From positions 1 through 57,326 of the forward strand of contig DALYEI010000002.1 of the NCBI GenBank assembly GCA_031972685.1: DNA of 57,326 bases, given 5' to 3'. The DNA is from Minisyncoccota bacterium. GTDB lineage: Bacteria; Patescibacteriota; Minisyncoccia; Phycocordibacterales; UBA9973. A program made the translations under genes and the position numbers. The notes under the pieces were generated by a model. It saw only the letters and a list, made by a program, of their open reading frames with translations. It was not told the origin of the DNA and did not search any database. The first letter of the stretch is position 1, and each line of letters starts with the position of its first letter. Positions 1,129-28,331 of this stretch are shown piece by piece.

Positions 1129-2874
1129 ATGCAAATAGATGAAGATCAATTAAAAAGATATATCTTGGAATCTAAACTCATTACTAAATCCGATTTAGAA
1201 GATATAGTAAAAAAATCAGAAGAAAAAAAGCAAAAGTGGACTGATTTGCTTTTGTCAGAAAATAAAATTTCCGAAGTAGATCTCAAAAGAATGGAAGCCT
1301 TTGTTTTAGGTATTCCTTTTGTGAATTTAGCAAAAGAAAAAATCAATGCCGAGATACTTTCTCTAATACCTGAACCTATAGCTCATAACTATAATATTAT
1401 CGCTTATAATAAAAAGGAAAATGCGCTCGAAGTTGCAATGCTAGACGTAGACGACCTACCAGTTATTGATTTTATTAAAAAACGTTCAGGTCTCAAGATT
1501 TTGCCTAGACTTACCGATACGGCATCTATAAAATCTTCTTTAATTCAATATAAAAAGAGTCTTCAAGCCGAATTTGATAATATTATTCAAAAGGAATCAG
1601 TTTCTCTAAAAATTGCTAAGCAAGAAGGAGAGCATTCCGAAGCTGAACTTAAAGAACTCGCTGAAGATTTACCAGTAGTTAAAATCGTTGATTCGATTAT
1701 TCTTCACGCGATTTTGCAAAACGTATCTGATATTCATATCGAACCAGGAGAAAATACTTTGACTGTTCGTTATCGTATCGATGGTATTTTGCATGATGCG
1801 ATGGTACTCGACAAAAGTGCGGGTAACGGTATTACTGCTCGTATTAAAGTTTTATCAAATCTGAAACTCGATGAAAAAAGACTTCCTCAAGACGGACGTT
1901 TTAAGATTGAGCAAAATGGAGATAAGGTATCTTTTCGTGTTTCTACTTTACCTACTTTCTTTGGAGAGAAAACCGTTATTCGTATTTTGAAAGAAAATGC
2001 TCATGGTTTTTCACTCGAAGGTTTAGGTTTTCACGGTGAAGGTTTAGAACGCATTCATGAATCCTTAAAACAAAAAACAGGTATGGTTCTCGCTACTGGT
2101 CCGACAGGTTCGGGTAAAACTACTACGCTCTATACTATGCTCGATATTTTAAACAAACCAGAAGTGAATATTTCTACCGTCGAAGATCCAGTCGAATATC
2201 AAATGCCTCGCGTAAATCAAAGCCAAGTAAAGCCTGAAATTGGATTTTCTTTTGCATCTGGACTTCGTTCATTACTACGTCAGGATCCTGATATTGTGAT
2301 GGTAGGAGAGATCCGTGATGGAGAGACTGCTTCGATTGCGGTAAATGCTTCGCTTACTGGGCACTTAGTACTTTCAACAATCCACACCAACTCCGCTGCC
2401 GGAGCTATCCCTCGTATGATTGATATGGGAGTTTTGCCGTTTTTGATAGTTTCAACTGTCAAAGTTATTATTGCGCAACGTTTAGTTCGTAGATTAACAA
2501 ATACTAAAGAAAAATATTTCTTGTCTCCAGATCAACTTAAAAATCTAGCTAAGATTATAGACCTCGACCGTATGCTATCTATTTTGAAGCAAGAAAAATT
2601 AATTGAAGAAAAGGCTACTTGGAAAGAAATACCTTTTTATAAAGTACCTGATGATTCTAAAGCTGGAGATGGGTATAGTGGGCGTGTTGGTATTCATGAA
2701 GTTTTAAAAGTTACTCTTTCTATTCGTGAACTTATTTTGAAAAATGCATCTGGAGATGAAATCGAAGAGCAAGCTAAAAAAGAAGGTATGATTACTATGA
2801 TAGAAGATGGAATCTTCCAAGCTGTTTTAGGAAATACTTCTATTGAAGAAGTCTTCCGTGTAGTTTCTGAATAA
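1129..2874 (+). CDS. pilB: type IV pilus / type II secretion assembly ATPase (GspE/PilB family)
   Basis: Walker A GPTGSGKTTT, the DPDIVMVGEIRD Asp box and the TGHLVLSTIHTN His box are all present. Length of 581 aa is typical of PilB. Confidence 0.9.
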   Translation: MQIDEDQLKRYILESKLITKSDLEDIVKKSEEKKQKWTDLLLSENKISEVDLKRMEAFVLGIPFVNLAKEKINAEILSLIPEPIAHNYNIIAYNKKENALEVAMLDVDDLPVIDFIKKRSGLKILPRLTDTASIKSSLIQYKKSLQAEFDNIIQKESVSLKIAKQEGEHSEAELKELAEDLPVVKIVDSIILHAILQNVSDIHIEPGENTLTVRYRIDGILHDAMVLDKSAGNGITARIKVLSNLKLDEKRLPQDGRFKIEQNGDKVSFRVSTLPTFFGEKTVIRILKENAHGFSLEGLGFHGEGLERIHESLKQKTGMVLATGPTGSGKTTTLYTMLDILNKPEVNISTVEDPVEYQMPRVNQSQVKPEIGFSFASGLRSLLRQDPDIVMVGEIRDGETASIAVNASLTGHLVLSTIHTNSAAGAIPRMIDMGVLPFLIVSTVKVIIAQRLVRRLTNTKEKYFLSPDQLKNLAKIIDLDRMLSILKQEKLIEEKATWKEIPFYKVPDDSKAGDGYSGRVGIHEVLKVTLSIRELILKNASGDEIEEQAKKEGMITMIEDGIFQAVLGNTSIEEVFRVVSE

Positions 2875-2875
2875 T

Positions 2876-4090
2876 ATGTTATTTAAATATAAAGCAAAAA
2901 CAAAAACTGGAGAAATTATAGAAGGCACTATAGAAGCCTCTGATCGTTTTTCTGTATCTCGTGACCTAAGATCAAAGGGTAATAATCCTATTTCAATCAC
3001 ACAAGAAGGCGGGGTTTTTAATCTAGACAGTTTAATAGAGAAAATTTTTGGAAAAGTAAAATTATCTGAGTTAATTATTTTTACCCGTAACCTAAGTGGA
3101 ATGCTTAAAGCTGGATTGCCTTTAGCTCGTGCTTTATCCGTAGTAGAAAAACAAACTAAAAATAAAACTTTTCAGAAAATTTTAGCTGATTTACAAAACG
3201 AGATTAATTCTGGAGGAACTTTTTCTAGTGGACTTACAAAATATCCAAAAGTTTTTTCAAAACTTTTTGTATCTATGGTCCGTGCAGGGGAAGAGTCTGG
3301 AAATTTATCTAATGCTTTACTCGAAGTTGGTATGAATTTAAATAAATCCTATACTCTAACTAAAAAGGTAAAAGGGGCAATGATTTATCCAGGTGTGATT
3401 TTAGGAGCTATGGTTATTATTGGAATTTTGCTTTTTGCTTTCGTGGTGCCGACTTTAGCGAAAACTTTCGTTGAACTTGGGGTTAAATTGCCAGCAACTA
3501 CTAGGTTTATTATCGGTCTCGGGAATTTCTTTTCGAATTATTTAATCTTTGCTTTACTTTCAGTTTTCGCTATAGGTTTCGGAGGGTATATGCTTTTCAA
3601 AGCAAAATTTATGCAAAAGTATATTGATTTTGTTGTGATAAGGATTCCGGTTATTGGTACTATTGCTAAAGAAGTTAATACAGCTCGTACTGCGAGAACC
3701 TTATCTTCATTATTACTTTCTGGAGTTTCTATTACTCGCGCTATTGAGATTACCGAAGACGTTGTGCAAAATTCTTATTATAAAAAAATCTTAGAAGAAG
3801 CCAAAGATAAAGTTGAAAAGGGTTCACCTTTCTCTTCAGCTTTTACTGAAAATACTAAACTCTATCCTATTATGATGTCGGAAATGATTCAAGTAGGTGA
3901 GGAAACAGGTAAGCTTTCAGACATGCTTCTTGAAATTGCAAATTTTTATGAAGGAGAAATAGAAGAAAAAACTAAAAACCTTTCGACTATTATTGAACCA
4001 ATCCTTATGATATTTATTGGAGGAGGAGTAGGTTTTTTTGCCCTTTCTATGATTACTCCACTTTATTCAGTTTTAAATAATATAGGTTAA
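2876..4090 (+). CDS. pilC: type IV pilus platform protein (GspF/PilC family)
   Basis: 404-aa polytopic protein with duplicated GspF-like halves (MVRAGEESGNL and MIQVGEETGKL). It lies immediately downstream of pilB. Confidence 0.88.
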   Translation: MLFKYKAKTKTGEIIEGTIEASDRFSVSRDLRSKGNNPISITQEGGVFNLDSLIEKIFGKVKLSELIIFTRNLSGMLKAGLPLARALSVVEKQTKNKTFQKILADLQNEINSGGTFSSGLTKYPKVFSKLFVSMVRAGEESGNLSNALLEVGMNLNKSYTLTKKVKGAMIYPGVILGAMVIIGILLFAFVVPTLAKTFVELGVKLPATTRFIIGLGNFFSNYLIFALLSVFAIGFGGYMLFKAKFMQKYIDFVVIRIPVIGTIAKEVNTARTARTLSSLLLSGVSITRAIEITEDVVQNSYYKKILEEAKDKVEKGSPFSSAFTENTKLYPIMMSEMIQVGEETGKLSDMLLEIANFYEGEIEEKTKNLSTIIEPILMIFIGGGVGFFALSMITPLYSVLNNIG

Positions 4091-18617: not shown

Positions 18618-19127
18618 ATGAAAATTCCAATAGTAAATGAACAGGATGAGATAATAGGATATAAAGAAAGAGAAGAAACTACTCCTAAAGATATTCGTCG
18701 AATCGTTGGTCTCGATGTGTTAAATGAAAAAGGAGAAGTTCTCGTAGCTAAAAGGAATCTAGACAAAAAAATAGATCCAAATCTTTGGGGCCCTTCTGTT
18801 GCTGGAACTGTCGATGAAGGTTTTAATTATGATGAAACAGTTTTAAAAGAAGCCGAAGAAGAAATTGGTCTTTTTGATGTTAAACCAGTATTTTTAAAAA
18901 AATATTTTTATGAAACTCCTAAATCTAGACGTTGGTGTCAGAGATATTATGTGATTATAAATAGTAAAGAAAGAGAATTAAAAAGACAAGAATCAGAAGT
19001 TGCTGAATTAAAGTGGGTAAGTATAGAAGATTTAGAAAAATGGTGGAAAGAAAAACCAGAAGAATTTATACCAAGTTTTGAAAGAACACTTGATTTTATT
19101 AAAGAAGTTTATAAAAAAGAATTTTAA
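18618..19127 (+). CDS. Nudix hydrolase
   Basis: Nudix box GPSVAGTVDEGFNYDETVLKEAEEEIG. Confidence 0.8.
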   Translation: MKIPIVNEQDEIIGYKEREETTPKDIRRIVGLDVLNEKGEVLVAKRNLDKKIDPNLWGPSVAGTVDEGFNYDETVLKEAEEEIGLFDVKPVFLKKYFYETPKSRRWCQRYYVIINSKERELKRQESEVAELKWVSIEDLEKWWKEKPEEFIPSFERTLDFIKEVYKKEF

Positions 19128-19162
19128 TTTAAAATTTCTTTAATTTGTGTTATTGTAAGGGT

Positions 19163-19591
19163 ATGCAAGTTAAGATCAAAAGAATAGATAAAAGTTTACC
19201 GATGCCGGAATATCAGACTAGCGGAGCTGTGGCTTTTGATTTATACTCTCGTTTGGATTTTGTTATTAAACCTAAAACTTTAGAGAGATTGCCTACCAAC
19301 GTAATAATCGCGATACCGAAAGGTTATATGCTTGAGATTAAAGACCGTTCTAGTACTTTGAAGAAAAAGGGGCTGCTTGTTAGTACTGGATATATTGATA
19401 ATGATTATTGCGGAGAAAACGATGAGATACTTTTGCAAGTTTATAATATTACTGACTCTGATGTAGTTGTTGAAAAAGGAGAACGTTTAGGTCAGGGAGC
19501 TTTTGTGAGAGTAGATATAGGAGAATGGGAAGAAGTTGAAAATATGAGCGAGCAAAGTCGAGGAGGATTTGGAAGTACAGGACATAAATAA
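19163..19591 (+). CDS. dut: dUTP diphosphatase
   Basis: GYIDNDYCGE and RGGFGSTG motifs. The start was set at MQVKIKR, 6 nt downstream of TGtTATTGT (19148-19156). Confidence 0.85.
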   Translation: MQVKIKRIDKSLPMPEYQTSGAVAFDLYSRLDFVIKPKTLERLPTNVIIAIPKGYMLEIKDRSSTLKKKGLLVSTGYIDNDYCGENDEILLQVYNITDSDVVVEKGERLGQGAFVRVDIGEWEEVENMSEQSRGGFGSTGHK

Positions 19592-19592
19592 A

Positions 19593-21341
19593 ATGGAAAT
19601 AAAAACAAGAATTGAAAATCTAATAAAAGAAGCATTAAAAAAACTCGAGATAAATAGTGAGGCTTATTTTTCTGTGGAGCATCCAGCGGATCTTAAAATG
19701 GGGGATTATTCGACGAACGTCGCTATGGTTTATGCGAAGAATTTGAAAATGAATCCGAAAGATTTAGCAGAGAAGATAGTGAATCAAATTAAAAACCCCC
19801 AAGCCCCCTTATCAGGTGGTCAAGACTCCTCCTTGATAAGGGAGGATACAGGAGGGTTTATACAGGAAATTCAAATTGCAGGTGCAGGTTTTATTAATTT
19901 TTATTTATCAAAAGAATATTTTTATAAAAAGTTAAATAATATTTTAGAACTTGGTTCTAATTATGGAAGAAATAATATTCATAAAAATAAAAAGATTCTT
20001 ATTGAGCATTCAAGTCCAAATCTTTTCAAACCTTTTCATATTGGGCATGTTATGAATAATACTATAGGAGAATCTATAACTCGTTTTGCAAGATTTTCTG
20101 GAGCAGAAGTTGTAGAGATTTCATATCCTTCTGACGTTTCTTTTGGTATTGGGAAAGCTGTTTGGGCTTTATTAGAAGATGGGTTAGAAGTATTAAATAA
20201 CTTACCTAATGAAGCTTCGCAGTTAGCTTATCTTGGAGATTGTTATGTGAAAGGCAATAAAGCTTTAGTTGAAGATCCTAGTTTGGAAACGAGAATGCGT
20301 GAAATTACAAAGTTGATTTATGATCAAACTCCTAGTAAAGAATTAGAAGCATACAATATAGGTAAAAAGATTAATTTAGAATATTTTAAAATGATGACCA
20401 AGAAACTTGGTTCTCTGTTTGATGCTTTTATTTTTGAAAGCGAAGCTGGGAAAGAAGGGGAAAAATTAGTTAGAGAAAATACTCCTAATATTTTTACAGA
20501 ATCAGAAGGCGCGACGATATATAAAGGAGAACAAGACGGGCTTCATACTAGAGTTTTCATAAACAAAGAAGGATATCCAACTTATGAAGCTAAAGACGTA
20601 GGACTTTTATTTTTAAAATTCTCTCGTTATAATCCTGATTTATCTATATTTATCACAGACCACGAACAGTCAGAATATTTTAAAGTTGTAGTTTCGGCTG
20701 CTGGAAAGATAAATAAAGAATGGAAAGAAAAAACTATTCACAGAACTCACGGCAGAATGAGCTTTAAGGGACAGAAGATGTCTTCTCGTTTAGGAGGAGT
20801 TCCACTTGCTAGTGATTTAATAGAAGTTCTTTTAGCAGAGATAGAAGAACTTAAAAAAAATAAAGAAGAAGTAGATATTAAAGAAGATAGGGAAGCTGTA
20901 GCTATCTCGGCTTTGAAATTTGCTATTCTTAAAAGCGTAGCTGGTAAGAATATTAATTTTGATCCAGAAACTTCGTTATCTTTTGAAGGGGATTCAGGTC
21001 CTTATCTTCAGTATTCTACTGTGCGAGCGAACTCTGTTTTAGAGAAAGTTTCAAATGTTCAGTCTGATTTTTCTATTAAAAATGAAATTACTGAAGTAGA
21101 AAAATATTTAGATAGATTTGAGGAAGTTGTAGCTAAATGTATTAATGTTTGGGAGCCTCATCATATGGTAGATTATTTACTTGACTTGGCTCAAAGATTT
21201 AATTCTTGGTATGCGAAAGTAAAGATTATTGATGAAACTAATAAAGATATGGCTTATAACTTAGCTATTGTGAAAGCGTTTCATTCAACTATGCAAAACG
21301 GACTTTACCTCCTAGGTATTGAAAGTCCAGAGAAGATGTAA
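19593..21341 (+). CDS. argS: arginine--tRNA ligase
   Basis: HIGH-type motif PFHIGHVMNN and a DALR-like C-terminus. The start was set at MEIKTR, 1 nt after the dut stop. Confidence 0.9.
   Translation: MEIKTRIENLIKEALKKLEINSEAYFSVEHPADLKMGDYSTNVAMVYAKNLKMNPKDLAEKIVNQIKNPQAPLSGGQDSSLIREDTGGFIQEIQIAGAGFINFYLSKEYFYKKLNNILELGSNYGRNNIHKNKKILIEHSSPNLFKPFHIGHVMNNTIGESITRFARFSGAEVVEISYPSDVSFGIGKAVWALLEDGLEVLNNLPNEASQLAYLGDCYVKGNKALVEDPSLETRMREITKLIYDQTPSKELEAYNIGKKINLEYFKMMTKKLGSLFDAFIFESEAGKEGEKLVRENTPNIFTESEGATIYKGEQDGLHTRVFINKEGYPTYEAKDVGLLFLKFSRYNPDLSIFITDHEQSEYFKVVVSAAGKINKEWKEKTIHRTHGRMSFKGQKMSSRLGGVPLASDLIEVLLAEIEELKKNKEEVDIKEDREAVAISALKFAILKSVAGKNINFDPETSLSFEGDSGPYLQYSTVRANSVLEKVSNVQSDFSIKNEITEVEKYLDRFEEVVAKCINVWEPHHMVDYLLDLAQRFNSWYAKVKIIDETNKDMAYNLAIVKAFHSTMQNGLYLLGIESPEKM
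19805..19842 (+). repeat. GC-rich imperfect palindrome inserted in-frame in argS
   Basis: Arms cccttatca (19806-19814) and tgataaggg (19834-19842). It encodes part of NPQAPLSGGQDSSLIREDTGG. Confidence 0.6.
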
Positions 21342-21567: not shown

Positions 21568-21608
21568 AATTTGGTTTACAAAAATCTAACTTTTGGTATT
21601 ATAAAGAT

Positions 21609-21834
21609 AAGCTATGAAAGAGCAATCACTCTTTCGCTCTGTCAGTCTCGAATGACGGGGCAAGCTAGGGAAGAACACTTCGACTTCGCTCAGTGCAAGA
21701 CGAAATTAGTAGAACCCTATAAATGAGAAGTCCTTCTCTGCTAAAGCTATGAAGGATTAAAACCAAGGTGGTACCACGGGGAAACTCGTCCTTGAATTAT
21801 AACTTTATGTTGTAATTTGAGGACGAGTTTTTTT
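21609..21834 (+). promoter_or_regulatory. T-box leader (tRNA-sensing riboswitch) upstream of ileS
   Basis: Conserved T-box core aaaaccaaGGTGGTACCacgggg (about 21759-21780). A terminator follows, with arms aaactcgtcct (21782-21792) and aggacgagttt (21820-21830) plus a T-run. Its own promoter is TTTACA (21575-21580) / TGgTATTAT (21594-21602). Ile codons lie in candidate specifier positions (ATC 21625-21627, ATT 21705-21707). Confidence 0.7.
21676..21699 (+). repeat. 24-mer CACTTCGACTTCGCTCAGTGCAAG inside the T-box leader
   Basis: 23/24 identical to 16636-16659. Here it forms a hairpin, ttcgactt-loop-aagacgaa. Confidence 0.7.
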
Positions 21835-21853: not shown

Positions 21854-24800
21854 ATGGAAAAAGAAAATCAAAAAAGTGAAAGTGCATTACGTGAAGAAAA
21901 GGTTTTAGAATTTTGGAATGAAAATAAAATCTTCCAAAAATCTATGGATGAGAGAGAAGGGGGGAAAGAATTTGTCTTCTACGAAGGGCCTCCGACTGCC
22001 AACGGTAAACCCGGAATTCATCACCTCGAAGCTCGCGCTTTTAAAGACGTGATCCCTCGTTATAAAACTATGCGTGGTTTTCACGTGCGTCGTAAAGGAG
22101 GTTGGGATACGCACGGACTCCCAGTCGAACTTCAAGTAGAGAAAAAATTAGGACTTAATTCTAAAAAGGCTATCGAAGAATACGGTATAGCGAAATTTAA
22201 TCGTGAATGTAAAGAAAATGTTTGGGAGTATTTAGAATTTTGGAATAATTTTACCGAACGTATTGGATACTGGGTAGATCAAAAAAATCCTTATGTTACT
22301 TATGAGAATAATTATATTGAATCTCTTTGGTCTGTAGTTAAAAAAATAGATGATCAAAAATTAATTTATAAGGATTATAAAATCGTGCCTTGGTGTCCAC
22401 GTTGCGGAACGACTTTATCTTCGCACGAGTTAGCGCAAGGTTACGAAGATGTGAAGGATTTATCTTTATATGTGAAGTTTCGTGTAGTTTCTTCGCCTGA
22501 TGCTTTTCCTCAGGTCCTCGGGTCGCAGGCTCAACCAGACCATTCAGAAAAGCATGCAGGCTCAGAAACTTTCATTCTCGCTTGGACTACTACACCTTGG
22601 ACCCTGCCTGGTAACGTCGCTCTCGCAGTCGGGGAAGATATTGAGTATGTAGAGGTTATTGCTTTAGACTGTGGAAATAAATATATTTTTGCTAAAGAAT
22701 TATTTAATAAAATAAAAGAAAAATTTACTTCAGAGATTGAGTTAGTTTCTGAATTTAAAGGCTCAGAATTAATCGGCTTAGAATACGAACCGCTTTTCCC
22801 TTATTTAGAAAATACAATTTCCGAAAGCGAAAAACCTAAATTAGAAAATGCTTTTAAGGTTTATCCTGCAGACTTCGTAACTACGGAAGACGGTACGGGG
22901 ATAGTGCATACTGCGGTGATGTACGGAGCAGACGATTTTGAGTTGGGTAATAAGGTTGGATTGCCGAAGCATCATTTAGTAAATCTCGAAGGTAAATTTA
23001 TCTCTGGTACGGATTTCTTAGAAGGACGCTTTGTGAAAGAAAAAGACGGCGGAGAAGTTAATGGTTTGGGTAAGCCGACTTTAGACGTAGATATTATTAA
23101 ATATTTACAAGAGAAAAATTTATTCTTCCATAAAGAACTTTATGAGCACTCATATCCTCATTGCTGGCGTTGCAAAACTGCTTTGATTTATTATGCACGC
23201 GATTCTTGGTATATCCGTATGTCGAGTCCAGAGATTAAAGATAAAATGATCGAAGAGAATAAAAGTATTAATTGGGAGCCTAGTCATATCCGCGAAGGGC
23301 GTTTTGGAGAATGGCTATCAGGTATTAAAGACTGGGCTATCTCTCGCGAGAGATATTGGGGAACACCCTTACCTATATGGGTTGCCGAAGATAAGGAAAT
23401 GCTCGTAGTAGATAGTATTGCAATGCTGAAAAATTATTCTAAAAAAAGTAATAATAAATATTTCGTAATGCGTCACGGTCAAACTAAAAATAATACTAAA
23501 AACTTAGTAAGCACTAAAATAGAAAAAGGTAGTCATCTTACGGATTTAGGTAAAGAGAATACGAAAATTTCTGCAGAATCTTTAAAAGATAAAAATATAG
23601 ATTTTATAATTTCTTCACCTTTTACTCGCACCTTAGAAACTTCAAAAATAATTACTGAAGTTTTAGGTATGTCCGAAGATAAAATACTGACTGATGCAAG
23701 GTTAGGGGAGATGCAAGTATTGTCTTATGAAGGTAAAAATTGGGACGAATATCATAAAGATTTTCCGAAGACTGTAGAGAATTTTGATAAGAAAAAAGAA
23801 GGAGATGAATCTTATCGTGACGTGCAAAAACGAGTGATGAATTTCCTTTTTGAAATAGAAGAGAAATATAAAGATAAAAATATTCTAATCGTGACTCACG
23901 GAGGTCCGGCTTGGCTTATGTCTTCAGGATCAGAGATGTTAAGTGTGGAAAGTACTTTAGAAATTATTTCTGATAAAAAAGATTTTCATTATCTTGATAA
24001 TTCTGAATTTTTAGAATTACCTTTCTTTAAATATCCTCATGATGAGAATTTTATTTTAGATTTACATCGTCCGTATATTGATGAAGTAGTTTTAGAGAAA
24101 AATGGTAAAGAATTCATTCGCACTAAAGAAGTTATGGATGTTTGGTTTGATTCGGGAGCTATGCCTTTTGCTCAAGATCATTATCCTTTCGAAAATAAAG
24201 AATTTATAGATGGTGCAGGCTATCCAGCTGACTTTATTTCTGAAGCTATTGATCAAACTCGTGGCTGGTTCTATACGCTTCATGCTGTGGGAACTTTGAT
24301 GGGTCGCGGTAAGGCTTATAAGAACGTTATTTGCTTAGGGCATTTACTAGATGCTAAAGGTAAAAAGATGAGTAAATCTCAAGGTAATATCGTTGAGCCC
24401 TTAAGTATGATAGCTAAATACGGAGTAGATACACTTCGCCTTTGGATGTATAGCGTGAATCAACCAGGGGAGAGTAAAAACTTTGATGAGAAAACTGTAG
24501 CGATACTACACAGTCAGGTTTTTGGTCTGCTTTATAACGTGCTCGCTTTTTATGAACTTTATCGAGATCGTGAATTAGAAACTAAAGAATTAGTAAAAAG
24601 TAAAAATATTTTAGATACTTGGATTTTGGCAAAGTTAAGTGAACTTGTAGAAGGAGTAACGAAAAACCTTGACACTTATAAAGTTTTAGAACCTACTCGT
24701 GCGATTCGTGATTTTATTGGAGATCTTTCTACTTGGTATTTACGTCGTTCACGTGAACGTATTAAAGAAGGGGAAAGTGAAGCAAAGCAAACTTTGTATT

Positions 24801-25417
24801 TTGTATTAAAAAATCTTGCGAAAGTTATGGCACCGTTTGCACCCTTTTCTGCAGAAGATATTTGGTTAAAACTTAGGCTGGAGAATGATAAAGAAAGCGT
24901 GCATTTGAGTGATTGGCCTAATGTCGCTGAGGATTTGCGGGACACGCCAGAGGTTGTAGAGAAAATGCAAAAAGTTCGTGATTTAGTTTCTACTGGTCTT
25001 CAAATTCGTCAAAAGAATAATCTGCCAGTGCGTCAGCCGCTTACTTCTTTCACTATAAATCTATCTGATTTAAATCAAGATTATGTAGAAATTATTAAAG
25101 ATGAATTGAATGTAAAAGAAGTTTTATCTGGTGAAGAAGTCAAGATTGATACGAATCTTACCGAAGAATTGAAACAAGAAGGAAATTATCGTGAATTTTT
25201 ACGTTCTGTGCAAGATTTGCGCAAGAAAGACGGCTTGATTCCTAGTGATATGATAACTTTATTTATTGAAACTAATGAAGAAGGTCAAACTTTGATTAAT
25301 AAATTTGAAACTGAATTTAAAAAAGTTGCTGGAATTAGTGAAATTAAATTTACTGAAAATGAAGGGGTAGAAGTAAAAGTAGGGGAATTAGTATTTAAAA
25401 TCAAAATACAAAAATAA
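21854..25417 (+). CDS. ileS: isoleucine--tRNA ligase with an inserted histidine-phosphatase-like domain
   Basis: PPTANGKPGIHH (HIGH), WTTTPWTLPGN (editing domain) and KMSKSQGN (KMSKS) motifs. About 200 extra residues lie between WGTPLPIW and DLHRPYID. Confidence 0.92.
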   Translation: MEKENQKSESALREEKVLEFWNENKIFQKSMDEREGGKEFVFYEGPPTANGKPGIHHLEARAFKDVIPRYKTMRGFHVRRKGGWDTHGLPVELQVEKKLGLNSKKAIEEYGIAKFNRECKENVWEYLEFWNNFTERIGYWVDQKNPYVTYENNYIESLWSVVKKIDDQKLIYKDYKIVPWCPRCGTTLSSHELAQGYEDVKDLSLYVKFRVVSSPDAFPQVLGSQAQPDHSEKHAGSETFILAWTTTPWTLPGNVALAVGEDIEYVEVIALDCGNKYIFAKELFNKIKEKFTSEIELVSEFKGSELIGLEYEPLFPYLENTISESEKPKLENAFKVYPADFVTTEDGTGIVHTAVMYGADDFELGNKVGLPKHHLVNLEGKFISGTDFLEGRFVKEKDGGEVNGLGKPTLDVDIIKYLQEKNLFFHKELYEHSYPHCWRCKTALIYYARDSWYIRMSSPEIKDKMIEENKSINWEPSHIREGRFGEWLSGIKDWAISRERYWGTPLPIWVAEDKEMLVVDSIAMLKNYSKKSNNKYFVMRHGQTKNNTKNLVSTKIEKGSHLTDLGKENTKISAESLKDKNIDFIISSPFTRTLETSKIITEVLGMSEDKILTDARLGEMQVLSYEGKNWDEYHKDFPKTVENFDKKKEGDESYRDVQKRVMNFLFEIEEKYKDKNILIVTHGGPAWLMSSGSEMLSVESTLEIISDKKDFHYLDNSEFLELPFFKYPHDENFILDLHRPYIDEVVLEKNGKEFIRTKEVMDVWFDSGAMPFAQDHYPFENKEFIDGAGYPADFISEAIDQTRGWFYTLHAVGTLMGRGKAYKNVICLGHLLDAKGKKMSKSQGNIVEPLSMIAKYGVDTLRLWMYSVNQPGESKNFDEKTVAILHSQVFGLLYNVLAFYELYRDRELETKELVKSKNILDTWILAKLSELVEGVTKNLDTYKVLEPTRAIRDFIGDLSTWYLRRSRERIKEGESEAKQTLYFVLKNLAKVMAPFAPFSAEDIWLKLRLENDKESVHLSDWPNVAEDLRDTPEVVEKMQKVRDLVSTGLQIRQKNNLPVRQPLTSFTINLSDLNQDYVEIIKDELNVKEVLSGEEVKIDTNLTEELKQEGNYREFLRSVQDLRKKDGLIPSDMITLFIETNEEGQTLINKFETEFKKVAGISEIKFTENEGVEVKVGELVFKIKIQK
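22496..22560 (+). repeat. GC-rich imperfect palindrome inserted in-frame in ileS
   Basis: Arms atgcttttc (22500-22508) and gaaaagcat (22547-22555), flanked by cctg/cagg. It encodes PDAFPQVLGSQAQPDHSEKHAG. Confidence 0.6.
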
Positions 25418-25418
25418 T

Positions 25419-26075
25419 ATGCGAAATATTTTAAAAATTTACGAACATTATAAAATAATGCCGAATCTGAGCTTGCATCAATTACGAGTTGCGAGCGTAA
25501 TATATTTAATTTACAAAAATTCAACTCTAAAAATAGATGAAAATATCGCGATTCAATCTGGATTACTGCACGATATGGGCAATATTGTGAAATTTGATTT
25601 AAATTATTACCCAGAATTCAATCAACCTTTAGGCTTAGCATATTGGCAAAATATTCAAAAAGAATTTAAAGAAAAATACGGTAACGATGAACACGAAGCA
25701 ACTCAAAAGATTTTAGAAGAATTAGGAATTGATAAAAGAGTTATAGAGATTGATAGTAAAATGATTTTTGGTAATTTATGTATTGATAAAGATAGTAATG
25801 ATTGGGAATTAAAGTTACTTCATTATGCTGATATGCGAGTTGGACCTTTTGGAATTCTATCTTATGAAGATCGGATGGAAGATGCGAGAAAAAGATATGA
25901 AAAAAAACTTGATGATGAAATGACTCGAGAAAAAGACAGGAGAGAAATATTGCTTGCTTGTGGTAAAGATATCGAGCGCCAAATCTTTGAAAATTGTTCT
26001 ATAAAACCTGAGGATATTAACGACGACTCAATAGCGCCTATAATCGAAGAATTAAAAGGATTTATGATAAAATAA
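25419..26075 (+). CDS. HD-domain phosphohydrolase
   Basis: LLHDMGN motif. The start lies 1 nt after the ileS stop. Confidence 0.65.
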   Translation: MRNILKIYEHYKIMPNLSLHQLRVASVIYLIYKNSTLKIDENIAIQSGLLHDMGNIVKFDLNYYPEFNQPLGLAYWQNIQKEFKEKYGNDEHEATQKILEELGIDKRVIEIDSKMIFGNLCIDKDSNDWELKLLHYADMRVGPFGILSYEDRMEDARKRYEKKLDDEMTREKDRREILLACGKDIERQIFENCSIKPEDINDDSIAPIIEELKGFMIK

Positions 26076-26079
26076 GAGT

Positions 26080-26646
26080 ATGAAAAAAGTTTACTTAATT
26101 CATGGATATGAAGGAGAGCCTAATGGAGGATGGAGACCTTGGTTAATGGGAAAGCTTGCAAAAGATAATATTTGGGCTTGCGCTCTTGCTATGCCAATGG
26201 CTGGTAGTCCAAAAAAAGAACAGTGGGTAAAAAAAATACAAGAAGAAATAGGAGAGCCTCATGAAGAAATATTTCTAGTCGGGCATTCTTTAGGTGTTCC
26301 TGCTATTTTAAATTTTTTAGAAAGTCTACCAAGCGGAAGTAAAATAGGTGGAGCAGTTCTTGTATCTGGGATTATTCATGTTATTCCTGACAAAGAACGT
26401 TACTTACCAATAAATCATTTTTTTGATAAAGATTTTAAATATCAATACATCAAAGATAGATGTAAAAATTTTGTTATTATTCATGCAAAAAATGATGAAA
26501 ATGTTCCTTATCAGCAGGCTGTTGATTTGTCAGAATCTTTGTTGGTGAAATTAATCACATTAGAAGAAGGTGGTCACCTTAATGCTTCATCAGGGTGCTA
26601 TGAACTACCAGAAGCATTAGAAGAATTAAAAAAGATGATGAATTAA
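26080..26646 (+). CDS. alpha/beta serine hydrolase (YdeN/RBBP9-like)
   Basis: IHGYEG N-terminus, nucleophile elbow GHSLG, and late D and H residues (NDENVP, GGH). Confidence 0.7.
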   Translation: MKKVYLIHGYEGEPNGGWRPWLMGKLAKDNIWACALAMPMAGSPKKEQWVKKIQEEIGEPHEEIFLVGHSLGVPAILNFLESLPSGSKIGGAVLVSGIIHVIPDKERYLPINHFFDKDFKYQYIKDRCKNFVIIHAKNDENVPYQQAVDLSESLLVKLITLEEGGHLNASSGCYELPEALEELKKMMN

Positions 26647-26649
26647 ATT

Positions 26650-27048
26650 ATGAAAACTATTTTAGTTGATGCGGTCTATACATTTATTATAAAAAATTCT
26701 AATAATGAATTTGAAATTTTTCAAGAAATGTTTGAATTACTTGAACAATACCCAAATCAAAAACTTGTTTTAACAAATGCTTCTGATGATAAATTTGAAT
26801 TATATAAATTAAATGAGTTACCTTATAATTTTTTTACGCTAAAACATAACCCAGAAAAAACAAATCCAGAATATTTTAAGATTTTATTAAATACTTATAA
26901 TTTAAAAGCAGAAGATGTGATTTATTTTGAACACAGTATAGAGGCTGTAAAAAGCGCAGAATCAGTAAGAATTAAATCATATTTTTATGATGAAAATAAA
27001 AAAGATTTAGTAGGTTTAAAAAATTTTCTAGATACTAATTTAAACTAA
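26650..27048 (+). CDS. hypothetical protein, possibly HAD-like
   Basis: N-terminal ILVDAVYTF resembles HAD motif I, but the second Asp is missing. Confidence 0.3.
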   Translation: MKTILVDAVYTFIIKNSNNEFEIFQEMFELLEQYPNQKLVLTNASDDKFELYKLNELPYNFFTLKHNPEKTNPEYFKILLNTYNLKAEDVIYFEHSIEAVKSAESVRIKSYFYDENKKDLVGLKNFLDTNLN

Positions 27049-27082
27049 ATGCATCATATTTATCATACTGAGGGGATAATAT
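27049..27082 (+). repeat. copy A of the 34-bp recO 5'-end duplication
   Basis: atgcatcaTatttatcatactgaggggataatat, 33/34 identical to 28335-28368. It translates to MHHIYHTEGII followed by a stop. Confidence 0.9.
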
Positions 27083-27089
27083 AAAAAAC

Positions 27090-28331
27090 ATGGAAAACTT
27101 TAAGAAAATTGAAAGCAAAACTTTAGAAGAGCATAAAAATGAACTTGAAAGACAATTTCATATTTTTAAACTTTCTTACATTGAAAGACTTTATGATAAA
27201 AAAATTCCACCTCTTGAAGAAAGTTTTATTGATATTAAATATGGTGAAAATGATGAAATAATTGAAAAAGAAATTAAAATAAATACTGATGATTTTAATA
27301 TGCTTCTCGGTAGATATACTGATATTTTAAGATCATTTGTTATTGCACATAAAAAAATAGAGAATCCGGATTCTAGGGTAGGTTGGACTGATGAAGAATA
27401 CGATGCTATTTCAAAAATATATATTGAAAAGATTAAAGAATTTTATCGTGTCGATAAAACAAAATGGATTGAAAATACTATGCTTTTATTGGATGAAATG
27501 AATAATAAATTAAAAAATGAAAAAATAGAAAATCTTTTAGATAATGATAGATCAGGCCTAATTTCAACAGAAATTATTACAGATCAAAGATTAGAAAATA
27601 TTTTAAAAAACACCAATATACCTTTTAACAAATATGATAAATACTTAGAATTACATTTAAGACCACTAGTTGAATTACAATATGGAAAATCAGAAGTAAA
27701 TATTTTTTCCGAAGATTCCTTAAAACAATTAGCATTAGATATAGTTGATAAATATCGAGAAGTAAAAGGAATAATCGGACAGTCTTGGATTTTAGATACT
27801 CCTATTGCTGAAAGAATTGGGTTTAAGCAGTTGAAAAAAACAATAAGTATGACTCCATCATTTTGGGGCCAATTTCAAGATGCAAAAGGGCAGTTAGTTA
27901 AAGAAAGAATTAATAAATTACTCGAAACAGGTAAACCACCTTATATGGTGGTTATGGGTATTATTGATGTCATTGATTTTTTGAAAAAATATTTACCAAA
28001 TGAAAGAAAAGGAGAAGTTATTTTAAAAGAAAAAAATGAAGATTTCGATTATAAATCTTTTAATGATGCTAATATAAAAGGAAATCTAATGCGTTGGGAT
28101 GATATGTCTTTAAGTGAAGTAGAGAACTATATTGAAAGTAATAAGTTTTTAAAAATGTTTTTTGAAACAGAGGAAGGTAAAAATTCAAAAGATTTATTTA
28201 TAAAACTTAAAAAAGAAAATATAAAATTAGAAAACTTAAGATCAAATCAAGAATGGCAAGATTATGCTCAAAAATTTAATAAATTTATCGATTCTTTAAT
28301 GTTTAAAGAAAAGAAAGTTTTTATAGAATAA
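27090..28331 (+). CDS. hypothetical protein (413 aa), no family recognised
   Basis: Long uninterrupted ORF bracketed by the 34-bp direct repeats. The TAATAT inside repeat copy A lies 7 nt upstream of its ATG. Confidence 0.5.
   Translation: MENFKKIESKTLEEHKNELERQFHIFKLSYIERLYDKKIPPLEESFIDIKYGENDEIIEKEIKINTDDFNMLLGRYTDILRSFVIAHKKIENPDSRVGWTDEEYDAISKIYIEKIKEFYRVDKTKWIENTMLLLDEMNNKLKNEKIENLLDNDRSGLISTEIITDQRLENILKNTNIPFNKYDKYLELHLRPLVELQYGKSEVNIFSEDSLKQLALDIVDKYREVKGIIGQSWILDTPIAERIGFKQLKKTISMTPSFWGQFQDAKGQLVKERINKLLETGKPPYMVVMGIIDVIDFLKKYLPNERKGEVILKEKNEDFDYKSFNDANIKGNLMRWDDMSLSEVENYIESNKFLKMFFETEEGKNSKDLFIKLKKENIKLENLRSNQEWQDYAQKFNKFIDSLMFKEKKVFIE

Follow-up and report, generated by a model that had tools for sequence, protein, structure and literature searches.

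A histidine phosphatase domain nested in the isoleucyl-tRNA synthetase of a Minisyncoccota bacterium

Few enzymes have been studied as closely as the aminoacyl-tRNA synthetases, whose known inserted domains (the editing domain CP1) act within the reaction cycle of the synthetase itself. Bacterial isoleucyl-tRNA synthetase (IleRS) of type 2 is the eukaryote-like, mupirocin-resistant type. The subject of this report is ileS, the IleRS gene, on a 57,326-nucleotide stretch of Minisyncoccota DNA (contig DALYEI010000002.1 of assembly GCA_031972685.1, positions 1 to 57,326 of the forward strand; hereafter the window), which encodes a type-2 IleRS with a histidine phosphatase domain nested in its catalytic core. 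When the literature on IleRS or other tRNA synthetases with a histidine phosphatase or phosphoglycerate mutase (PGM) domain was searched, the only description found was a single sentence of Kantor et al. 2013 (PMC3812714), which reports an SR1 IleRS with two nested phosphatase copies of the PGM superfamily plus a NUDIX domain. The window protein resembles that IleRS in having a domain of the PGM superfamily, the histidine phosphatases, nested in an IleRS of the candidate phyla radiation. The SR1 case differs in belonging to another lineage and in having two phosphatase copies plus NUDIX, and the sentence devoted to it does not analyse where the domains sit, how they arose, how conserved they are or what they do. 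RAAC4_OD1_1, an OD1 genome of the same study, also encodes a nested-domain relative (L047), of which a search of PMC3812714 by terms returned no mention. The architecture, a synthetase with an accreted domain, is barely present in print.

The host synthetase and the site of insertion

The window ileS (21854..25417, plus strand) is one uninterrupted open reading frame (ORF) encoding 1187 residues. An earlier reading of the letters and their translations, made without database searches (the sequence-only reading), had described the insert as in frame, which it is. The whole protein scores 875.7 bits against the NCBIfam ileS model TIGR00392 (cut-off 621.4) and contains the Pfam families tRNA-synt_1, His_Phos_1, Anticodon_1 and DUF5915. 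Its best solved relatives by sequence are IleRS2 enzymes (8c8w, E 1e-228; 1ile, E 2e-211). In the alignment to 8c8w, the IleRS2 of Priestia megaterium, residues 3–518 match chain positions 3–466 and residues 733–1090 match positions 484–847. The N-terminal part (residues 1–518; 21854..23407, plus strand) comprises the first half of the Rossmann fold, the CP1 editing domain and the WGTPLPIW strand (residues 502–509; 23357-23380). The C-terminal part (residues 733–1187; 24050..25414, plus strand), which aligns to 8c8w positions 484–847 and 938–1022, contains DLHRPYIDE (residues 736–744, starting at 24059), DVWFDSG, KMSKS (residues 838–842; 24365-24379), the anticodon-binding domain and DUF5915. 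The sequence-only reading had called both synthetase signatures intact. That is right for KMSKS; the HIGH signature is present as its type-2 variant, GIHH (residues 54–57; 22013-22024). The editing motif TTTPW (residues 245–249) and H352 are invariant in an alignment of 105 nested IleRS.

No second or insert-free IleRS was found in the source genome, a 590-kb assembly estimated to be about 95% complete. The insert-bearing ileS is the sole isoleucyl-tRNA synthetase gene of the assembly, and the host is a complete type-2 IleRS with editing, anticodon-binding and C-terminal domains. For the models of the mupirocin-resistance exceptions MupA and MupB the cut-off is 1900, and the scores were 766 and 738 bits; by sequence, the window IleRS is related to these proteins as an IleRS2 and is itself neither MupA nor MupB.

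The insert is the gap in the 8c8w alignment and spans residues 519–732 (23408..24049, plus strand). The WGTPLP strand is followed by a β-hairpin, at whose tip the insert is located. An insertion of about 200 residues between WGTPLPIW and DLHRPYIDE, as the sequence-only reading had proposed, agrees with both the ORF and the motif mapping. Of the boundaries which that reading gave, 23440–24058, the end holds, with DLHRPYIDE beginning at the next base; the start is one base out of frame, as codon 530 begins at 23441 and translation from 23440 runs only into stops. Its description of this position as a short linker in other IleRS proteins was also correct, since the hairpin tip of P. megaterium IleRS2 has only about 17 residues in the alignment, compared with about 214 here.

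The window protein thus shares the full synthetase architecture and a GxHH-type signature with P. megaterium IleRS2 (8c8u/8c8v/8c8w) and Thermus thermophilus IleRS (1ile), and departs from them at this hairpin. In those two enzymes the hairpin forms a zinc knuckle, with the short tip placed between two cysteine pairs. Both pairs are lost in the window protein, where WVAEDKE and VLEKNGKE stand in place of CxxC and CxC; one CxxC is kept in some homologues. We take the zinc knuckle to be a variable rather than a defining feature of type-2 IleRS. The hairpin evidently tolerates the insertion of a whole domain.

One explanation for such an architecture is an artefact of assembly or binning, in which a phosphatase gene has been chimerically joined into ileS, and the sequence-only reading had itself named a chimeric join at the insert borders as an alternative. 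The G+C content of the insert is somewhat lower than that of the remainder of the gene (0.293 vs 0.363), and no positive support for a join was found. The reading frame is continuous. An identical 1187-residue protein with the same neighbours is present on four contigs, including the assemblies of two separate sequencing runs. A homologue search scored on residues 520–745 only matched 1535 long proteins, and tRNA-synt_1 and His_Phos_1 occur together in all of the best 120 of these 1535 matches. At least 500 species-representative genomes, labelled Paceibacterota, Nomurabacteria, Parcubacteria or Minisyncoccia, encode a nested-domain relative. Together with the lack of an insert-free IleRS in the genome, the recovery of the same protein from two runs and the recurrence of the architecture make a chimeric join very unlikely, to the point that we consider the artefact explanation nearly negligible. 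No signature of an intein or another self-removing insert (a Hint or splicing domain) was found, His_Phos_1 being the only Pfam match of the insert.

Compared with P. megaterium IleRS2, the window protein also has a 24-residue extra segment, SSPDAFPQVLGSQAQPDHSEKHAGSE (residues 213–236; 22490-22561), in the hairpin that leads into the editing domain. No other long internal stretch of the full-length structural model described below is of low confidence (pLDDT below 50 at residues 219–235).

The nested histidine phosphatase domain

The sequence-only reading had assigned the insert to the histidine phosphatase superfamily, and profile searches agree. Pfam PF00300 (His_Phos_1, branch 1) matches residues 537–691 (23462..23926, plus strand) with an E-value of 1.5e-32, and a scan of the whole genome places the domain identically. 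The score, for which the cut-off is 21.7, is 113.2 bits when the whole protein is searched and 117.7 bits when the insert is excised; the 206 excised residues alone give an E-value of 6.7e-34, well outside what chance would produce.

The three catalytic motifs recognized from the letters are complete and map where they had been placed: FVMRHGQT at residues 537–544, SSPFTRTLET at 587–596 and VTHGG at 680–684. The RHG motif (23471..23479, plus strand) provides R540, H541, which is the predicted phospho-accepting histidine, and G542. The second phosphate-binding arginine, R592, belongs to the SPFTR motif (23627..23629, plus strand), E619 is the predicted proton donor (23708..23710, plus strand) and H682 of THGG is the second catalytic histidine (23897..23899, plus strand). 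R540, H541, G542, N547, R592, E619 and H682 are invariant in all 105 nested IleRS, which differ from one another at about 50% of the sequence, and the catalytic set is equally invariant in seven stand-alone copies encoded next to ileS in related genomes (see below). Mean column conservation is 0.667 in the insert, 0.65–0.67 in the IleRS body and 0.55 in the editing domain. The fold and all catalytic residues are under purifying selection as strong as that on the synthetase.

These data bear on the idea that the insert has kept only its fold and serves, without catalysis, as a structural or regulatory module. The loss of the zinc-knuckle cysteines from the host hairpin would fit such a role, as the domain might replace the knuckle structurally. 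However, dead domains usually do not retain every catalytic residue, in 105 of 105 proteins, at such divergence, and we regard a silent module as very unlikely.

Structure prediction of the full protein, which the sequence-only reading had put forward as a check, is in line with the assignment. The full-length AlphaFold2 model, built from the full alignment, has a pLDDT of 88.6 and a pTM of 0.81; the insert reaches 90–97 and its linkers 81–95. The model matches IleRS2 structures (Foldseek E 4e-87, TMt 0.76). Modelled on its own (pLDDT 85.1), the domain adopts the α/β fold of the superfamily and matches 4ij5, 4qih and 1h2e at a probability of 1.00. Its TM-scores against small free-standing branch-1 phosphatases (4ij5, 4qih, 9mmh, an Entamoeba phosphoserine phosphatase and 1h2e) are 0.66–0.72, and a sequence-level search of the PDB agrees with the structural matches, with E-values down to 1e-9. 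The insert belongs to branch 1 of the histidine phosphatase superfamily and forms a compact domain of about 180–200 residues that, judged by its residues, is apparently active.

A more specific family name could not be given. The models for named small phosphatases stay below their cut-offs (CobC TIGR03162, 81.2 vs 162.9; PspA NF045917, 60 vs 350; SixA TIGR00249, 30.6 vs 74.5), and so do those for phosphoglycerate mutases of the dPGM type (TIGR01258, 28.6 vs 81.7; NF038349, the archaeal short form, 75.5 vs 225). As no NCBIfam equivalog cut-off is reached for any of these four, the insert is best described as a superfamily member without a named subfamily.

The failure of the dPGM models also argues against the proposal that the nested domain serves as the phosphoglycerate mutase of this cell. 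Several features of the genome would suit that role: the insert is its only His_Phos_1 match, enolase is present, iPGM_N and apgM are absent, and the Metalloenzyme family has no match at E≤0.1; iPGM is also absent from nine of ten sampled genomes of the same order. The distribution of iPGM across the class nevertheless shows no complementary pattern, as it is found in 160 of the 208 genomes with His_Phos and in 37 of the 43 without (a hand tally), and it coexists with a single nested His_Phos in many genomes, for example G014, G024, G027 and G042. Moreover, genomes of the same genus have an additional free paralogue, and contig C30 of the source assembly ends exactly where genome G121 has that gene, so that the apparent single copy may reflect a gap in the assembly. 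We rejected a missing phosphoglycerate mutase as a general explanation on the grounds of iPGM co-occurrence, the failed dPGM models and the C30 gap; for this cell in particular, a mutase role appears highly improbable.

Some further observations concern these gene families. Contig C30 (1941 bp) stops about 116 bp beyond a gene whose homologue in G121 precedes a 234-residue gene and the free His_Phos paralogue. Neither iPGM nor apgM (Pfam Metalloenzyme) was found in G000, G148, G214, G021, G061, G092, G171, G193 or G235, and iPGM is present in 197 of 251 genomes of the class. Members of genus g26 (e.g. G019, G091, G120, G192 and G213), with genomes of about 0.8 Mb, have 6–10 His_Phos_1 matches each and no Metalloenzyme match; this count is a marked expansion of the superfamily.

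Free relatives, operon context and recurrence in other synthetases

The relation of the nested domain to free-standing phosphatases was examined in ten genomes of the class whose listed His_Phos match is a stand-alone gene encoding about 190–215 residues. In seven of the ten (L003–L009), this gene, here termed X, directly adjoins an ileS that has no insert. argS was detected on the other side of X in five of the seven (L003, L005, L006, L007 and L009), and L004 and L008 show the X–ileS adjacency with no ArgRS match. The argS–X–ileS genes are tightly packed in L003, L006 and L007, with gaps of a few bases. Loci L010–L017 represent His_Phos copies that are not adjacent to ileS.

In phylogenetic trees, the nested domains form one clade (support 100/99) that groups with the ileS-adjacent stand-alone copies (88/85), and a branch supported at 96/97 separates both from most free paralogues. 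Beyond the catalytic set, the nested and adjacent copies have R616, Y672 and K675 in common. The single clade and its grouping with the operon copies suggest a one-time capture of the argS–X–ileS operon partner into the hairpin of the synthetase, and we infer from the sequences that one such capture is the simplest reading.

In the window, argS (19569..21341, plus strand; identified from its ORF and from Pfam families on the identical contig) lies upstream and is followed by a probable T-box leader (21605..21796, plus strand; Rfam RF00230, 34.8 bits, E 4.4e-6) and then ileS. With this gene order, the phosphatase is now probably under the control of the ileS leader. Four argS–X–ileS loci of the relatives yielded no T-box at E≤1e-3, and those operons are too tight to hold a leader; T-box co-regulation was therefore rejected for the relatives.

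Nesting of a histidine phosphatase is not confined to IleRS. Valyl-tRNA synthetases (ValRS) with a His_Phos domain nested at the site homologous to the IleRS insert were identified at L022 (G073), L023 (G090) and L025 (G210), with valS scores of 796–897 bits. Their guest domains fall among free paralogues in the tree, outside the IleRS-linked clade, which indicates that the ValRS capture was independent.

A second hydrolase family is found in the IleRS of genome G098 (L020; G098:C7, 3223-7083), in which PF00293 (NUDIX) matches at 83 bits and His_Phos_1 at 142 bits. The NUDIX domain occupies the hairpin in which the window IleRS has the segment at residues 213–236. IleRS frames of 1303–1366 residues in G196 and G152 suggest the same NUDIX plus His_Phos architecture. 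The source genome has four NUDIX genes of its own, and the NUDIX gene of the window is only 25% identical to the nested NUDIX of G098. That gene and a dUTPase gene lie immediately upstream of argS, at 18618-19591. A conserved NUDIX–dUTPase–argS–ileS string was considered and discarded, as the arrangement is not kept in the relatives examined.

Other neighbouring genes vary as well. Four ORFs lie between ileS and recO in the window (25419-28331), and in relatives recO directly follows ileS. They encode a weakly HD-like protein, a Ser_hydrolase protein and products of 132 and 413 residues. The HD-like ORF starts 2 nt past the ileS stop codon and scores 17.8 bits, below the cut-off; a link to defence systems was dismissed after PADLOC gave no match for either the insert or this ORF. 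In L003, L006 and L007 a tmRNA gene (122–152 bits) lies 1.2–1.6 kb upstream of argS. In L004, at which argS was not detected, tmRNA is found about 3.9 kb upstream of X–ileS; the tmRNA genes of L003, L004, L006 and L007 are located at about 2500–3600.

Possible functions and comparison with known systems

The window ileS would thus specify two enzymes in one polypeptide, a type-2 IleRS host and a nested branch-1 histidine phosphatase guest. The guest is predicted to be a phosphomonoesterase acting through a phospho-His541 intermediate, in which R540, R592 and H682 would hold the phosphate and E619 would be the acid. Its likenesses place it provisionally in the small-molecule phosphatase subgroup (PspA-, PhoE-, GpgP- and HFP-like) rather than with phosphoglycerate mutase, and its production here is probably governed by the ileS T-box leader.

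We give about an even chance to the view that the insert is an autonomous, active phosphatase module whose production is locked one-to-one to that of IleRS, and which would act on a soluble phosphomonoester and take no part in the chemistry of aminoacylation. Autonomy is favoured by the fold, which resembles small-molecule phosphatases, by the many relatives without the gene, by the presence of up to ten His_Phos genes in a genome and by a compact fold that suits nesting. His_Phos is also not indispensable for the synthesis of Ile-tRNA, because His_Phos is entirely absent from 43 of the 251 class genomes, and others have only non-adjacent copies. Several points weigh against this view. Entry into a catalytic-core loop carries more risk than fusion end to end; the ValRS capture and the co-nesting of NUDIX in G098 are a recurrence that argues for more than co-expression; and the T-box match, at 34.8 bits, is below the Rfam gathering score of 93.

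The alternative is a direct coupling, in which the phosphatase would be a third active site acting on something that the synthetase holds or makes. A nucleotide or tRNA-end substrate had been raised, as speculation, by the sequence-only reading. Candidate substrates are the blocked acceptor end of a tRNA(Ile) phosphorylated at 2' or 3', a nucleotide arising as a by-product in the adenylate reaction, a phosphorylated inhibitor directed at IleRS, and IleRS itself where one of its residues is phosphorylated. Removal of pyrophosphate in support of adenylation was rejected as a role, since it is unneeded in a genome with a family-I pyrophosphatase gene. Coupling would account for the argS–X–ileS neighbourhood being kept across different families and for the same lineage having been fused into IleRS. 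It would also account for three genomes of the class in which a different His_Phos lineage independently entered the homologous ValRS loop. The combination of NUDIX and His_Phos in the G098 IleRS, as in the SR1 protein of Kantor et al. 2013, points the same way, both families acting on nucleotide-type phosphate compounds; and the confidence of the linkers in the model (pLDDT 81–95) suggests an attachment that is fixed rather than floppy. On the other hand, the 43 genomes without His_Phos and the loci with non-adjacent copies only (L010–L017) indicate that any such step is not obligatory, and all nearest structures are small-molecule phosphatases. Histidine phosphatases are also abundant, with up to 10 copies, and compact enough to suit nesting, so that repeated capture by chance could have occurred. 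We therefore consider direct coupling possible but doubtful. Class Ia synthetases of Patescibacteria have gained hydrolases more than once (His_Phos in IleRS, another His_Phos lineage in ValRS, and NUDIX together with His_Phos in some IleRS); the broader proposition that these provide an extra site acting on the synthetase's own ligand seems to us rather unlikely.

Either outcome would be informative. An apparently active second enzyme resides in the catalytic core of a sole IleRS, and hundreds of uncultivated species have this arrangement as a fixed feature. Should its substrate be a synthetase ligand, the phosphatase would represent a new step in tRNA charging, repair or quality control, for instance by taking off a phosphate that blocks the acceptor end of the tRNA or by degrading nucleotide by-products or inhibitors at the adenylate site. 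If the autonomous module is merely a co-expressed housekeeping enzyme, the protein would clearly exemplify how a genome can be streamlined by placing genes inside essential ones.

Among described phosphatases, the guest is most similar to Hydrogenobacter PspA (4ij5), mycobacterial GpgP Rv2419c (4qih), the riboflavin-pathway HFP (9mmh) and Bacillus PhoE/YhfR (1h2e, 1ebb), with which it shares the fold (E about 1e-11), the catalytic residues and a length of about 200 residues. These enzymes are free-standing, have known small-molecule substrates and are just 20–24% identical to the insert, whose loop after N547 departs from the usual QG..D.PLT pattern of small branch-1 phosphatases. The closest free relative sampled is the stand-alone phosphatase of the argS–X–ileS loci in related Paceibacteria (L003–L009), which is 30–39% identical and has the same catalytic set together with R616, Y672 and K675; it is a separate gene of about 185–190 codons, and the neighbouring IleRS has no insert. 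As a domain inserted into a loop of the Rossmann-fold core, the guest is comparable to CP1, to the GNAT domain of GNAT-containing IleRS (NF040702, a model to which the window protein scores 336 bits against a cut-off of 1999) and to the His_Phos domains of the three ValRS proteins (L022, L023 and L025). CP1 differs in that it is known to act within the reaction cycle of the synthetase, and the ValRS guests differ in belonging to another His_Phos lineage.

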